A stretch of DNA of 16,911 nucleotides from a virus (lineage: Duplodnaviria; Heunggongvirae; Uroviricota; Caudoviricetes), in the IMG/VR virus record IMGVR_UViG_2872164251_000008. One strand, given 5' to 3'. Below the pieces are notes generated by a model, which saw nothing but the letters and a program-made list of their open reading frames with translations, did no database searches and was not told the DNA's origin. Below, piece after piece: positions 1,462 through 16,911 of the stretch (the first letter of the stretch is position 1; every line of letters starts with the position of its first letter). The position numbers and the translations under genes were made by a program.

Positions 1462-1537
1462 ATATGTCCTTTTACCACTACATCAAGTCATTGATTCGAT
1501 TAAACAATTTTCATTGAAAAAGTGCCAAAAATCGCAA

Positions 1538-1561
1538 ATTGACTACACCATTAACTACACC
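1538..1561. repeat. tandem 12-bp direct repeat ATTGACTACACC / ATTAACTACACC
   Basis: Two adjacent 12-mers, 11/12 identical, read directly from the sequence at 1538-1549 and 1550-1561. Confidence 0.6.
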
Positions 1562-1578
1562 GTTCGGTGCACTGTATG

Positions 1579-1604
1579 AAACAACGTGGAACAAATAGAC
1601 ACAA
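1579..1604. promoter_or_regulatory. three (A/G)AACAA-like hexamers at exact 10-bp phasing (AAACAA 1579, GAACAA 1589, ACACAA 1599); about 35 bp is similar to the element at 9884-9909
   Basis: Direct reading. The core AACAACGTGGAACAA is identical to 9886-9900. Confidence 0.5.
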
Positions 1605-1954
1605 GAAATATACAGGCGGGTAATCTTTCCAGGGGGAAGCGCACCAATTCATGAGGGGCGTTAATGTCGATATGGGGATCCCCATAACGGGGCTACCGGA
1701 TTTTTTTTCCGGTTAACCTTTAATCAGGCTGGTGGGTTTTACATACCCTTGATCACCGTAATGATGATCCAGATGTGCACCTTTTCCACCAATGGCGGAA
1801 AAGCTCCAACCGTAACGATGATCGCTATGGTTGCCTCGATGGTCTGCGTGGTCATTATGACCGTTCAGCCAGTGACCTTAATCAGAATTTTTCGCTAAAA
1901 AATGACGTTGGCCACGTCATCCGGAAAGCACAAAATCACGTCGATTTTTAATGA

Positions 1955-2008
1955 ACGGTTAAACCGTCTTTTTGTCACGGTGTGTCACTGGTTGTCACTC
2001 TCCGTCAC
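1955..2008. repeat. palindrome ACGGTT-A-AACCGT followed by four TGTCAC/CGTCAC hexamers at exact 10-bp phasing (1973, 1983, 1993, 2003); candidate recombinase/accessory-protein binding array near the island junction
   Basis: Direct reading of 1955-1967 and 1973-2008. Confidence 0.45.
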
Positions 2009-2257
2009 GATTGAGGTGGTGGTCATTCTGCCCGACCGCGCATTTTTGCGCTATCGGGAATATCAAACAGTTACCTCGCCGACTTCCTCAAATTGAGGTT
2101 TCCGAAAATATCAGAGCGGGTTAGCGATTAAGCTGACGAGTAATTAAACTGCGAAAATTTCGTAGTTTCTGAATATATTCCGGCCTGCTGGTTAACAGTC
2201 CTCAGATGTGAGGGATGTAGCCAGCGCAATTTTGCGCTTTGCTTTAATCTCAGTGAG

Positions 2258-2539
2258 TTACCGCCGTAACCGCTCCGGCTTCTTCCCGTGGTACGTGATT
2301 TTCTCCTTCTCCCGATACATCTCCACGCGGCGACGGTAGGCCAGCAACTCAAGAACTCTGGTTCGTATGTTGCGCATATCCACGCCATTAAGTTCTATAC
2401 CATCACGGCGCATCACCTCAGCAACAACACGCGCATAGTTTTCGGCTATCACGCTGTCCGGCTGCGTGGCCTGTTCGTCAGCCTGCTGGCTGATTCCGGC
2501 AACGCGGCGGATTAATCCCGTTATTTCGGCTTCTGTCAT
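2258..2539 (-). CDS. hypothetical protein (93 aa), last gene of the packaging operon, originally 13 nt downstream of the intact terL stop
   Basis: ORF track 2258..2539. ATG preceded by GAGG at about 8 nt. Protein-like composition. No family recognised. Confidence 0.55.
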   Translation of the reverse strand: MTEAEITGLIRRVAGISQQADEQATQPDSVIAENYARVVAEVMRRDGIELNGVDMRNIRTRVLELLAYRRRVEMYREKEKITYHGKKPERLRR

Positions 2540-2552
2540 GCTGCTGACCTCA

Positions 2553-2626
2553 TTACACCCCGCTAAATTCTTCCAGTTTCTGGCGGTGGCTGTCGCTTAT
2601 ATCAAAAGCAAAATCCTCATGCTCTG
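2553..2626 (-). pseudogene. displaced 3' end of terL (last 21 codons plus stop) separated from the gene body by IS1
   Basis: Removing IS1 and one target duplication restores an in-frame continuation of TerL (...FQAEH-EDFAFDISDSHRQKLEEFSGV-stop). Confidence 0.8.
2618..2626. repeat. IS1 target-site duplication, left copy (CATGCTCTG)
   Basis: The 9 bp immediately flanking the IS1 end are identical to 3395-3403. Confidence 0.9.
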
Positions 2627-2641
2627 GGTAATGACTCCAAC

Positions 2642-3145
2642 TTACTGATAGTGTTTTATGTTCAGATAATGCCCGATGACCTTGTCATGCAGCTCCACCG
2701 ATTTTGAGAACGACAGTGACTTCCGTCCCAGCCTTGCCAGATGTTGTCTCAGATTCAGATTATGTCGCTCAATGCGCTGAGTGTAACGCTTGCTGATAAC
2801 GTGCAGCTTTCCCTTCAGGCGTGATTCATACAGCGGACAGCCATCCGTCATCCATACCACGACCTCAAAGGCCGACAGCAGGCTCAGAAGACGCTCCAGT
2901 GTGGCCAGAGTGCGTTCACCGAAGACGTGCGCCACAACCGTCCTCCGTATCCTGTCATACGCGTAAAACAGCCAGCGCTGACGTGATTTAGCACCGACGT
3001 AGCCCCAATGTTCGTCCATTTCAGCGCAGACAATCACATCACTGCCCGGTTGTATGCGCGAGGTTACCGACTGCGGCCTGAGTTTTTTAAGTGACGTAAA
3101 ACCGTGTTGAGGCCAACGCCCATAATGCGTGCACTGGCGCGACAT
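2642..3145 (-). CDS. insB: IS1 transposase InsB frame (expressed as an InsAB' fusion by -1 frameshifting)
   Basis: ORF track 2642..3145. Translation recognised as IS1 InsB (…[38 protein letters not shown]…HYLNIKHYQ). Confidence 0.88.
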
Positions 3146-14819: not shown

Positions 14820-14914
14820 TTGCATTGCCCACCAGCCTGATAGCGGCTATCATCCCCGTGCTTATGTTTGGGATCACACACACAAACGGCGCAGCGGGTT
14901 ATCTGTTCAGAAAG

Positions 14915-14942
14915 GCGGCTCCATTTCGGGGCCGCTTTTTTT
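14915..14942 (+). terminator. rho-independent terminator for the + strand RHH unit (8-bp stem GCGGCUCC/GGGGCCGC with one G-U pair, 5-nt loop, T7 tail)
   Basis: Direct reading. Confidence 0.6.
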
Positions 14943-15088
14943 ATGCCTGAAAAACCCCAATTTTGTGGTTTTCCAGTTTCACCAGGGCGAACGAATCCCC
15001 GCCCACGTTCTGGCGTATATTCAATCTTCATGGTTATAGCTCTGTGTTCAGATGATTGATGTGTGGCGGCTGCGTGCCGCCAGCGTGA

Positions 15089-15277
15089 TTAATGAACTGC
15101 CTTGCAGCTATCCTTCCAGGCCAGAACCTCGGATAAAGACCAGCCAACGGAACGACCGCCAAGTTTACGACGTGATGGGAATTGTCCGGCCTTTTCCAGG
15201 CGGTAGCGGCATGAGCGGCTAAGGCCTGTTAGCTTTTCGCATTCTTTTTCACGTATAAACCGATCAGTGCTTAACAC
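15089..15277 (-). CDS. alpA: AlpA/Vis-family phage transcriptional regulator (excisionase-like HTH), GTG start
   Basis: ORF track 15089..15277. Pattern …IREKECEKLTGLSRSCRYRLEKAGQFPSRRKLGGRSVGWSLSEVLAW… is characteristic of AlpA/Vis proteins. AGGGGG Shine-Dalgarno. Confidence 0.85.
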   Translation of the reverse strand: MLSTDRFIREKECEKLTGLSRSCRYRLEKAGQFPSRRKLGGRSVGWSLSEVLAWKDSCKAVH

Positions 15278-15328
15278 TATTGCCCCCTTTCGTTTCTTAA
15301 AGAGTTATTTCGTGTTCTATTGCGTTGG

Positions 15329-15357
15329 GATGTGTCTGATTGTGTCAGGATGATTCA
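15329..15357 (-). promoter_or_regulatory. candidate alpA promoter (-35 TTGCCA, 17-bp spacer, -10 CACAAT) with two GACACA direct repeats phased 10 bp apart over the -10 and start region
   Basis: Direct reading of the minus strand. Not verified. Confidence 0.35.
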
Positions 15358-15437
15358 GAGTTGGCAAATGTTGAGGCCGTATGGTTTACAGAAAGAGGAA
15401 TAATCAGGATAAAATCATTTAAATTCATGTTAATACA

Positions 15438-15468
15438 AAGGCATAAAATATTGTTTCATGCCTTTTTT
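15438..15468. terminator. terminator-like hairpin (AAGGCAT / ATGCCTT stem, 13-nt loop) with a T-run on the + strand; possible int terminator or end of an unannotated small transcript
   Basis: Direct reading. No ORF upstream on the + strand. Confidence 0.3.
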
Positions 15469-15560
15469 CTCGCTATTTAAAGAGTGATTCGCTAGTGTAT
15501 AAAAAACCAGTAAGACGTTAAAAATCAGCTACTTATAAATCTGTACACTTTTTCACCTCT

Positions 15561-15640
15561 TGTTCGTAGTTGTTCCGCATTGTTGCTCATTGTTGCTCAT
15601 TGTTGCTCATTGTTGCTCATTGTTGCACGTTGTATCTGTT
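15561..15640. repeat. eight tandem 10-bp units starting TGTT(C/G), including four perfect TGTTGCTCAT copies (15581-15620), between the int stop and alpA
   Basis: Direct reading. Exact 10-bp phasing. Confidence 0.85.
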
Positions 15641-15681
15641 CGCATATCCAGTATGCGCATACTGAAAAAACACGAAAAAAA

Positions 15682-16911
15682 TTATTTTCTTCTGGCTACT
15701 GGTAGCGTGGTTACGTTTTCATGTGTTCCCGCCAGTATCCCTAACCGCTCCGTCCACATATCCAGCGCATTGCGTTTAGCATCCAGATAACGGGAATGAT
15801 TATAAACTCGCTGCATTCCTGGCATCTGGTGGCCTGTAAGCTGCTCCACGACGTGAGGATCCACGCCTAAATCGTTCAGCATCGTTGTAAAGGTGCGCCG
15901 GATGTCATGTAGTGACCAGTGAGGGTGATTTAGCCTCCTGTGCGCTAATCTGCCGTACTGCGACACGCTTGTTTCCTGTTTCACTTCCCCCAGCAATAAG
16001 CCCGTGTGCCTGTTCTGCTCCACCAGCTGCGTGACGAACGGCAGTATTGCTTCCGGTATGGGCCGGAATATTGCCACCTTCGTTTTGCTGTGTTCTTTCG
16101 GCACGGTCCAGAGCATTTCGGTAAAATCCCACTCGCTGATCTCCGATAACCTCAGTTCTACCGTCCGGCATCCGAACACAATCAGGAGGCGGATTAACGC
16201 GATGTAGTAGGGGGAGAATATTTTTTTGTCCAGTGCCTGCAATAATTCGCCCAGTTCTTTGGTGCTTAAGACACGCTCGCTTATATCCGGTTTTTTCCCA
16301 ACGTCCGCCACACTCATATCATCAAGAACGTTGCTGATTGCATAGCGCCGCCTCCGGCAGAACTTAAGCGCCTGTTTGCACGTCTGTAGCAAGAATCCGG
16401 CAGTAACAGGCGTTCGCTTTGCCACCTGGTCAAAACAGGCCAGCCAGTGCCGTAGCTCGCATTTATCCAGCGGCATAGCACCAATGTGCTGTATTACGTG
16501 ATTATTAAGGCGCTTTTTCAGGGCGGCATAATCCACGCGGTTTTCCTTTGCGTACGACTCAAGCCAGTAGGTGAGCGCATCGCCAACCGTTACCGGCTTT
16601 AACGCTTCCTGTACGGTGTAATTAAGCTCATGACGTGGATTTTTCCCCTCTGCCAGCCATGCGCGACACTGGGCGGCTTTTTCCCTGGCTGATTTCAGGC
16701 TCAGATCAGGATAATTTCCCAGCTTAATGCGTTCCGGTGGTGCCCCCCTTCCCGTTCCGGCCCTGTAAGTGAAATACCAGGTTAAAAGGCCACTGGTTGA
16801 ATGCCTGACGCTCAGGTTTCCACCGTCATTAAGAAAGGCTGTTTTTTGGGCGGGTGTGCCGTTGATTTTCCTCAGCTGTGTATCGCTCAGTTTGTTAAGT
16901 GCTCTGCTCAT
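15682..16911 (-). CDS. int: tyrosine site-specific integrase, P4-type (N-terminal arm-binding domain plus catalytic domain); ATG is the last three bases of the window
   Basis: ORF track 15682..16911 (409 aa). Catalytic pattern …HDIRRTF… and …GHQMPGMQRVYNHSRY. N-terminal region resembles P4-family integrases. Confidence 0.92.
   Translation of the reverse strand: MSRALNKLSDTQLRKINGTPAQKTAFLNDGGNLSVRHSTSGLLTWYFTYRAGTGRGAPPERIKLGNYPDLSLKSAREKAAQCRAWLAEGKNPRHELNYTVQEALKPVTVGDALTYWLESYAKENRVDYAALKKRLNNHVIQHIGAMPLDKCELRHWLACFDQVAKRTPVTAGFLLQTCKQALKFCRRRRYAISNVLDDMSVADVGKKPDISERVLSTKELGELLQALDKKIFSPYYIALIRLLIVFGCRTVELRLSEISEWDFTEMLWTVPKEHSKTKVAIFRPIPEAILPFVTQLVEQNRHTGLLLGEVKQETSVSQYGRLAHRRLNHPHWSLHDIRRTFTTMLNDLGVDPHVVEQLTGHQMPGMQRVYNHSRYLDAKRNALDMWTERLGILAGTHENVTTLPVARRK

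Follow-up and report, generated by a model that had tools for sequence, protein, structure and literature searches.

A probable EcCIEDL933 allele with an IS1-truncated large terminase gene at the phoQ/roxA site of a Shigella flexneri-type genome

Genes and borders of the element next to phoQ

The IMG/VR virus record IMGVR_UViG_2872164251_000008 is a stretch of 16,911 nucleotides (the whole of which is called here the window) that carries, next to the chromosomal gene phoQ, a block of genes which most probably constitutes a capsid-forming phage-inducible chromosomal island (cf-PICI), an allele of EcCIEDL933 whose large terminase gene, terL, is interrupted by the insertion sequence IS1. The phoQ gene (1-1461, + strand) lies in the chromosomal flank, outside the island; it was recognized by the PhoQ equivalog model of NCBIfam, NF008077, with 957 bits, and its region is 98.5% identical in nucleotide sequence to that of Escherichia coli RM6927. 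The island genes are all located on the - strand and are read leftwards from the window end. The original prediction had placed beside phoQ a co-oriented block encoding an integrase, AlpA, a primase-helicase, a major capsid protein, a prohead protease, a portal, a head-closure protein, a gp6-like connector, an HNH endonuclease, TerS and TerL. All of these genes were found where they had been placed, and the eleven proteins gave strong matches in both Pfam and PHROGs, including the capsid, portal and terminase calls on which the prediction depended.

The int-distal junction of the island is a 10-bp att core, AAATATGTCC, at 1460-1469, which shares two bases with the end of the phoQ stop codon. 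The same 10-mer is present at both ends of the islands of E. coli EDL933 and RM6927, which are located between phoQ and roxA, and the empty site of E. coli K-12 reads AAATATGCCC (GATGAATAAATATGCCC) and continues directly, without interruption, into the roxA-side sequence, so that the K-12 site and the core together define the junctions. The island extends ca. 181 bp beyond the window end and its integrase-side att site lies outside the window. This site could be read in two assemblies found by exact-protein look-up, L009, which is 100% identical to the window over 3400-16911, and L008, which shows a single T-run indel over 1366-16911. In both, a second core is located at +172 to +181 beyond 16911 and is followed by roxA, pepT and potABCD. 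These 99.99-100% identical assemblies thus bear out the expectation that roxA (ycfD) follows the island, and, since the att core and chromosomal genes are found past 16911 and no tail or lysis genes are, an ordinary prophage end is excluded. The island measures 15,623 bp between the two 10-bp cores, or 14,846 bp without IS1.

A tandem duplication of ATTAACTACACC at 1538-1561 (+ strand), detected with TRF, is a putative arm-type site of the integrase. The arm-type 21-mer recurs just upstream of int, at the opposite end of the island, in EDL933 and RM6927, and in L008 and L009 the ACTACACC motif begins at +27 beyond 16911, where the ATTAACTACACC repeat is likewise duplicated.

The gene closest to the window end encodes a tyrosine integrase (16911-15682, - strand; PF13356, PF00589, PHROG 1) that is 100% identical in amino acid sequence to that of EcCIEDL933. 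It is followed by alpA (15277-15089, -; PF05930, E 5e-18), the regulator of excision and induction, whose product shares 61 of 62 residues with the AlpA protein of EcCIEDL933. The replication protein, of 582 amino acids (13115-11367, -), contains the Pfam domains D5_N, DUF5906 (P-loop) and Pox_D5, and is of the P4-family primase C-terminal type. It matched PHROG 864, 'DNA primase', with an E value of 1e-168, and it scored 107.5 bits with TIGR01613, the model for the P4-family primase C-terminal domain, just below the cutoff of 108.7. Directly after the stop codon of this gene, an iteron cluster (11138-11350), a putative replication origin, bears nine TCTACC/GGTAGA cores within 213 bp, some in one orientation and some in the other, on either side of an A+T-rich spacer. 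These represent nine of the 11 copies of the hexamer in the window, in which about four would be expected, and none of 200 shuffled sequences reached 11, a result in keeping with the iteron-containing origin that had been proposed next to the primase-helicase gene.

The head genes begin with that of the HK97-fold major capsid protein (9670-8513, -; PF05065, E 1.6e-61), 99.0% identical in amino acid sequence to that of EcCIEDL933. It differs from the protein in the PDB entry 9gyi at four of 385 residues (99% identity), and at each of these four positions the 9gyi chain and the EDL933 capsid protein have one and the same residue. A prohead serine protease of the HK97 family S78 (8473-7901, -; PF04586, E 5.9e-47; 96.8% identity to EcCIEDL933) and the portal (7899-6688, -; PF04860, E 5.5e-90; 98.5%) come next, and then the two neck proteins, which are a head closure or completion protein (Hc1) of 112 amino acids from the annotated start (6691-6353, -; PF05521, PHROG 25; 96.4%) and a gp6-like head-tail connector or adaptor (Ad1; 6356-6060, -; PF05135, PHROG 40; 98%).

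The packaging genes comprise an HNH endonuclease gene (6060-5620, -; PF01844, PHROG 144 with E 8e-45; 99.3%), terS, of the P27/Terminase_4 family (5331-4975, -; PF05119, E 1.3e-23; 100%), and terL (4991-3390, -; PF03354, PF20441, PHROG 9 with E 8e-178). The TerL protein, of 533 amino acids, is 98.5% identical over 532 residues to the 553-residue TerL of EcCIEDL933, and it can be aligned to the HK97 TerL structure 6z6d (E 3e-42). An open reading frame (ORF) of 60 amino acids between the HNH gene and terS (5636-5454, -; PHROG 3173) is 100% identical to the EDL933 ORF in the same position and is probably the homologue of 'gene 1792' of EcCIEDL933, a number obtained by counting genes from the capsid gene, 1786. 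Between this ORF and terS, G/C-rich tracts (5453-5332, -) mark a putative cos region; the assignment is inferred from sequence and position, and the position would fit HNH-dependent cos systems of the HK97 type. The record of a related induced element, vB_KppS-Ant (16.5 kb), starts 22 nt before terS and ends in a matching GGGGTGGGGG..TTTTCAGGAC stretch. The last gene of the island (2539-2258, -; PHROG 1561, E 1e-53) encodes 93 amino acids, 85% identical to the product of the EDL933 gene that follows terL, and would normally begin 14 bp past the terL stop codon.

An IS1 insertion inside terL

The packaging machinery had been described as complete, and this does not hold, because terL is truncated by an IS1 element that had gone unreported. 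The IS1 (2627-3394, - strand; 768 bp), which carries insA (3339-3064) and insB (3145-2642) and matches PF03400, PF12759 and PF03811, lies inside the 3' end of terL. Its borders are given by the terminal inverted repeats and by the exact duplication of a 9-bp target, CATGCTCTG (2618-2626 and 3395-3403); the homologous islands lack the IS1 and their alignment restarts exactly at the duplication. The present TerL protein ends in ...AEHG, with a stop codon contributed by the end of the IS1. Removing the IS1 and one copy of the duplication in silico yields a TerL protein of 553 amino acids ending in ...AEHEDFAFDISDSHRQKLEEFSGV, whose last 40 residues are identical in EDL933, RM6927 and the island of E. 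coli O103:H2. The orphaned 3' end of terL, which corresponds to the last 21 codons and the stop codon of the restored gene, is found at 2626-2553 (-). The IS1 also cuts the 93-amino-acid last gene off from the operon. A frameshift in terL of assembly L008, where a 472-amino-acid gene is called, was considered and rejected, since the sole difference between L008 and the window is the length of the T run at 1700-1708, outside terL.

Relation to EcCIEDL933 and to other elements

EcCIEDL933, from E. coli O157:H7 EDL933, is the prototype of the cf-PICIs and has a size of 15.4-15.5 kb (Alqurainy et al., bioRxiv 10.1101/2022.09.08.507074; He et al., bioRxiv 10.1101/2025.02.11.637232). It carries int, alpA, rep and genes for capsid, protease, portal, connectors, HNH, TerS and TerL, with no tail genes. 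Its helpers HK106 and HK446 induce it via alpA, which is required for both induction and transfer. The packaging genes tested are needed for transfer of the island and not for the phage, and their mutation abolishes transfer in all cases except that of the small hypothetical gene 1792, in which transfer is severely reduced; on the other hand, mutants of HK106 in tail and capsid genes showed that the helper tail genes are required by both the phage and the island. The small capsids that EcCIEDL933 encodes, which package island DNA only, have T=4 symmetry and are 47.5 nm across, and nothing but tails is taken from the helper for transfer. According to He et al. (bioRxiv 10.1101/2025.02.11.637232), the connector and the head-closure protein determine which tails are used in the cf-PICI family.

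We located EcCIEDL933 in the EDL933 chromosome, in the intergenic region between roxA and phoQ, with exactly the gene order of the window. The attachment site, the att core AAATATGTCC, Int, TerS and the 60-amino-acid ORF are identical in the two islands, which are also close in size (15.6 kb versus 15,461 bp). They differ mainly in the replication module, and further in several of the small early genes and in the accessory region, where the window has suffered a deletion affecting SSB and PerC genes, in terL, which is intact in EcCIEDL933, and in a 10-bp repeat downstream of int, of which EcCIEDL933 lacks three copies. The cf-PICIs of RM6927 (at phoQ/roxA) and O103:H2 (at tqsA) share with the window the D5-type replication protein, the iteron region and a packaging module that is 95-97% identical in nucleotide sequence; both encode an intact TerL protein of 553 amino acids, keep the SSB and PerC genes intact, and have no IS1 and no tail or lysis genes. 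Published work describes the exchange of integrase-proximal modules among PICIs and cf-PICIs, with which the swapped replication module among the window, EcCIEDL933, RM6927 and O103 islands fits. The O103 islands use another attachment site, their int gene is 91% identical in nucleotide sequence, and the arm-type repeat is a variant, TGACTACACC x2 at both ends of the tqsA-integrated island, where the window has TTAACTACACC x2. This divergence in int and in the arm repeat of the sister island suggests a small change in integrase specificity. The island of E. coli O103:H2 CEC12044 (NZ_AP038983.1, 2119519-2135255) splits tqsA.

For the assignment of the element to a class, its components were compared one by one with the cfPICI model of SatelliteFinder (PMC10085698) and with the description of He et al. 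2025. The 11 core components of the model, which are integrase, regulator (AlpA), primase-replicase, capsid, prohead protease, portal, head-tail adaptor, head-tail connector, HNH, TerS and TerL, were all matched by profiles above curated cutoffs, TerL without its last 21 residues. The order int, regulation, replication, accessory genes, capsid to connector, HNH, terS and terL, in a single orientation, is that of EcCIEDL933, and Int and the head and packaging proteins are 96-100% identical in amino acid sequence to those of this validated member. The size, which for this class is about 10-18 kb in a discrete unit bounded by att sites, is that given above, with the exact K-12 empty site as counterpart. 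None of the tested ORFs matched a tail, holin, lysin or lysis family of Pfam or PHROGs, as had been predicted, and the stretches left unassigned (1470-2257, 9671-9969, 11088-11366 and 15278-15681) are each shorter than 0.8 kb, far below the size of a tail module, and leave no space that could accommodate tail or lysis genes.

Classical PICIs, such as EcCICFT073 and EcCIED1a, and P4 resemble the element in the int-alpA-replication left half, in the helper-dependent induction through alpA and in the P4-family primase C-terminal domain. Unlike it, they remodel or reuse the capsids and terminase of the helper and are devoid of genes for portal, connector, head closure and TerL, components that the PICI model of SatelliteFinder forbids (portal, connector or adaptor, terL) and that are all present here. 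No RNA family was found in an Rfam scan of the whole window with E values up to 0.1, and hence no P4-like immunity RNA was detected. With phage HK97 the element shares the capsid fold, the S78 protease, the portal, the gp6-like connector and HNH-assisted cos packaging by TerS and TerL. It differs in that sequence identity is low and in that HK97 is a phage of ca. 40 kb with a T=7 head and with tail and lysis genes of its own, whereas the EcCIEDL933-type capsid is T=4.

It can also be asked whether the block is a cryptic prophage rather than a satellite, that is, the remnant of an ordinary HK97-like prophage whose tail and lysis genes have been deleted. The head and packaging genes do belong to phage families, and the IS1 and the deletions reveal ongoing decay. 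This explanation is nevertheless scarcely credible. Comparison with the empty site of K-12 shows both att junctions to be exact, and what lies between the cores is neither of the size (ca. 35-45 kb) nor of the composition (contiguous tail, lysis and immunity modules) of such a prophage. The regulatory and replication half is of the PICI and P4 kind (AlpA, D5-type primase, iterons), and EcCIEDL933 has been shown experimentally to be a satellite. Moreover, the same tail-less unit of 15 kb is also found intact at a second attachment site, tqsA, which indicates that the tail-less architecture is itself the mobile unit. Among 50,697 records, no full-size phage was close, the TerL proteins of true phages being at most ca. 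35% identical. The only closer records labelled as phages were elements of 10.7-16.5 kb with the same architecture, plus one Klebsiella record of 106 kb, the match to which was not examined.

Two of these records, LR881103.1 ('Escherichia phage vB_KppS-Ant', 16,548 bp) and OR544139.1 ('Pasteurella phage Pmp8', 15,321 bp), have the size and the gene order of cf-PICIs: int, regulator, primase, capsid to connector, HNH, TerS and TerL. They are probably satellites and not phages. As filed, the annotation of the vB_KppS-Ant record has a 765-amino-acid 'tape measure' directly after terL.

We therefore consider the block, with a probability of about 0.93, to be a cf-PICI, a decayed allele of EcCIEDL933, which in a genome of the Shigella flexneri type occupies the same attachment site, with the stop codon of phoQ on one side and roxA on the other. 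The satellite class that had been predicted is thus borne out at the very locus of its type element, and this also makes the finding one that was already known. Since the class, the prototype at the exact locus, the genetics and the capsid structure are all published, it is minor as a discovery. The features peculiar to this copy are its swapped replication module, the truncation of its terminase by IS1 and a degree of decay in the accessory region. Its practical value, which is modest, lies in an att core and an empty site that are exact to the base, in the exchange of replication modules between near-identical cf-PICIs at one attachment site, and in a natural C-terminal truncation of terL that can be used to probe the conserved tail of the terminase.

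Distribution of the island and of its IS1 allele

The packaging module was found in 538 of 5426 complete E. coli genomes, about a tenth of them, always in the chromosome, and 418 of these genomes cover at least 80% of the module, a distribution that again speaks against a prophage remnant. The exact truncated TerL protein is encoded in 149 assembly blocks, compared with 1705 for the replication protein; the chromosome of S. flexneri FDAARGOS_713 is one matching locus. The IS1 allele is present in no complete E. coli genome of the collection, and an exact-match scan of species-representative genomes for the IS1/terL junction gave 0 matches. Taken together, the assembly counts and the absence of the IS1 allele from the complete E. 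coli genomes point to vertical inheritance within a lineage.

Consequences of the terminase truncation

The steps by which an island of this kind would be mobilized have been demonstrated in the literature for EcCIEDL933 and are extended to the copy in the window on account of its near-identity. A helper phage would turn on alpA, and Int and AlpA would then excise the island at the AAATATGTCC core. Replication by the D5-type protein would start at the iteron origin that directly follows the gene for this protein. Small T=4 heads of the HK97 fold would be built by the capsid protein, the S78 protease and the portal, while HNH, TerS and TerL would cut at cos, upstream of terS, so that one unit of ca. 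15.5 kb is packaged. The head-closure protein and the gp6-like connector would finish the neck and dock siphophage tails; because these two proteins are 96-98% identical to those of the prototype, tails of the HK106 type are to be expected.

It is in the packaging step that the IS1 allele could fail. The residues lost from TerL form a C-terminal tail that is conserved in homologues just 68-82% identical, those in the small 'phage' records of Pasteurella and of an induced Klebsiella/Escherichia element, and this conservation argues that the tail is functional. In phages lambda and T3/T7, the C-terminal tail of the large terminase docks the enzyme on the portal. On these grounds, and given the lineage-restricted distribution of the allele, we lean towards the view that the lesion in terL prevents packaging or lowers it strongly. 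By the same token, it seems rather likely that this copy still excises, replicates and makes heads and cannot be packaged and transferred efficiently, in which case its persistence would be due to vertical inheritance; the copy would then probably be a vertically inherited, packaging-impaired remnant in S. flexneri. For annotators this carries a warning, namely that the S. flexneri island should not be scored as transfer-competent.

Several points weigh against considering the element a decayed, packaging-impaired allele of EcCIEDL933. Its replication protein (D5_N/DUF5906, 582 amino acids) is not that of the prototype, a DUF927 protein of 710 amino acids, the two being related only in the N-terminal ca. 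225 residues, with 53% identity. Induction, helper identity, T=4 heads and the position of cos would all be, for this copy, properties transferred from EcCIEDL933 by analogy. No core gene besides terL is disrupted, so that the decay is limited. The truncation leaves the Pfam nuclease domain of TerL whole, with profile positions 4-284 of 286 covered, so that the loss is confined to the C-terminal tail, and the 21 missing residues, being outside the conserved fold, might be dispensable. Finally, a literature search for a requirement of the extreme C-terminus of HK97-type TerL in portal docking found no published test and nothing decisive, so that the effect ascribed to the truncation rests on conservation and on the analogy with lambda and T3/T7.

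It is conceivable therefore that the island is a fully functional cf-PICI, in which the last 21 residues of TerL and the co-transcription of the 93-amino-acid gene are dispensable, and that it transfers with helper tails. In addition to the nuclease domain, the ATPase domain of TerL is intact according to Pfam, and the remaining core genes have kept their full length, with 96-100% identity to those of the working prototype. With IS1 included, the 15,623 bp of the island are only ca. 1% above EcCIEDL933, so that a T=4 head would still hold it. We regard such full function as rather unlikely, since cf-PICI-like elements of both Escherichia and Pasteurella have retained the tail that is missing here, and since the C-terminal tails of the large terminases of lambda and T3/T7 serve for docking on the portal. 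Moreover, the IS1 allele was seen only as a fixed chromosomal copy at a single site in the related assemblies that were read, and sister genomes carry further deletions.

A different explanation for the spread of the allele would be that the island has been domesticated in S. flexneri and is kept for a benefit to the host, for instance because empty heads or the capture of tails hinder phages or because of an accessory gene, and not for transfer. It is widespread in the assemblies of one lineage despite the IS1 lesion, with its head genes intact. On the other hand, no defence system was detected by PADLOC in ten ORFs (replication protein, small early and accessory genes), helper phage reproduction is not reduced by EcCIEDL933, and a recent insertion followed by clonal descent would explain the persistence equally well. 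Shigella genomes are generally rich in IS1 and contain many decaying genes. We consider domestication very improbable. Hardly less improbable is the broader proposition that either a domesticated island still makes heads in S. flexneri or the lost TerL tail is a cf-PICI-specific peptide that restricts the enzyme to certain portals. Were the first part true, an island that excises, replicates and, when a prophage is induced, forms T=4 heads that are wrongly filled or lack DNA could tie up helper tails or in some other way affect phages, whether resident or incoming. Were the second true, the TerL tail would keep the terminase on island portals and off helper portals, and the natural allele would be a ready test of the exclusivity of cf-PICI and helper packaging.

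Variable segments and minor features

In the segment between int and alpA, downstream of int, a 10-bp tandem repeat is located at 15570-15633 (TTGTTGCTCA on the + strand, GCAACAATGA on the gene strand). The array is 30 bp, or three units, longer in the window than in EDL933, RM6927 and O103, and could be a variable number tandem repeat or, within the region that controls alpA, an array to which a regulator binds. Downstream of alpA, an ORF of 248 amino acids rich in Cys, Ser and Arg (15031-14285, -) gave no match in Pfam, PHROGs, NCBIfam or PADLOC. The frame is open in EDL933, with 67% amino acid identity, the first 80 residues being almost identical and the remainder diverged; in RM6927 the equivalent of this predicted ORF is an icd-like pseudogene according to RefSeq. 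He et al. (bioRxiv 10.1101/2025.02.11.637232) characterize the gene downstream of alpA as a variable one without known function. The small early genes that follow (14276-13112, -) were called from assemblies identical to the window and include an Icd-like gene (14276-14076), two PHROG 2512 ORFs, a PHROG 2196 ORF (13650-13417) and a DUF4222 gene (13411-13112).

At the opposite end, four GTCAC motifs with an exact 10-bp spacing (1974-2008) occur in the non-coding DNA that separates the last island gene from the att end; they amount to three overlapping matches of GTCACN5GTCAC, with 0.03 expected. The array, which has the look of a set of protein-binding sites within a variable segment, is present in RM6927 and in the Shigella-type loci. 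It is absent from EcCIEDL933 and from the O103 island, and for this reason it was rejected as a cos or TerS site belonging to the core of the element. The following ca. 170 bp (2053-2223), from the GTCAC array to the 93-amino-acid gene, have no counterpart in RM6927 and match EDL933 only in the last ca. 18 bp; no ORF with a family match is found in this segment. In CCGGATTTTTTTTCCGG (1693-1716), the T run differs by one T between the window and L008, which is the sole difference between them over 15.5 kb.

The accessory region (11087-9970, -), between the putative origin and the capsid gene, contains an ORF of 74-100 amino acids (PHROG 1957), a fusion of SSB and PerC gene remnants, an ORF of 101 amino acids (PHROG 27268) and one of 92 amino acids (PHROG 1231). 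The fusion, an ORF of 53 amino acids at 10497-10336 (-), is the product of a deletion: its first ca. 25 codons come from SSB and the remainder from the C-terminal part of a PerC-family protein, and blastn and the annotations indicate a loss of ca. 0.5 kb with respect to EDL933, RM6927 and O103. Consensus scans for promoters and terminators in 1400-3500 and 9600-11400 gave counts that were not above those of shuffled sequences, and were used solely for spotting two near-identical terminator-like hairpins (AGCCGGAGCAATCCGGCT followed by a T run) at 9933-9950 and 10294-10315 (-). These hairpins flank a segment of 340 bp (9952-10291) that is deleted in S. flexneri FDAARGOS_713 and in a second assembly, which suggests that the deletion took place by recombination between the repeats.

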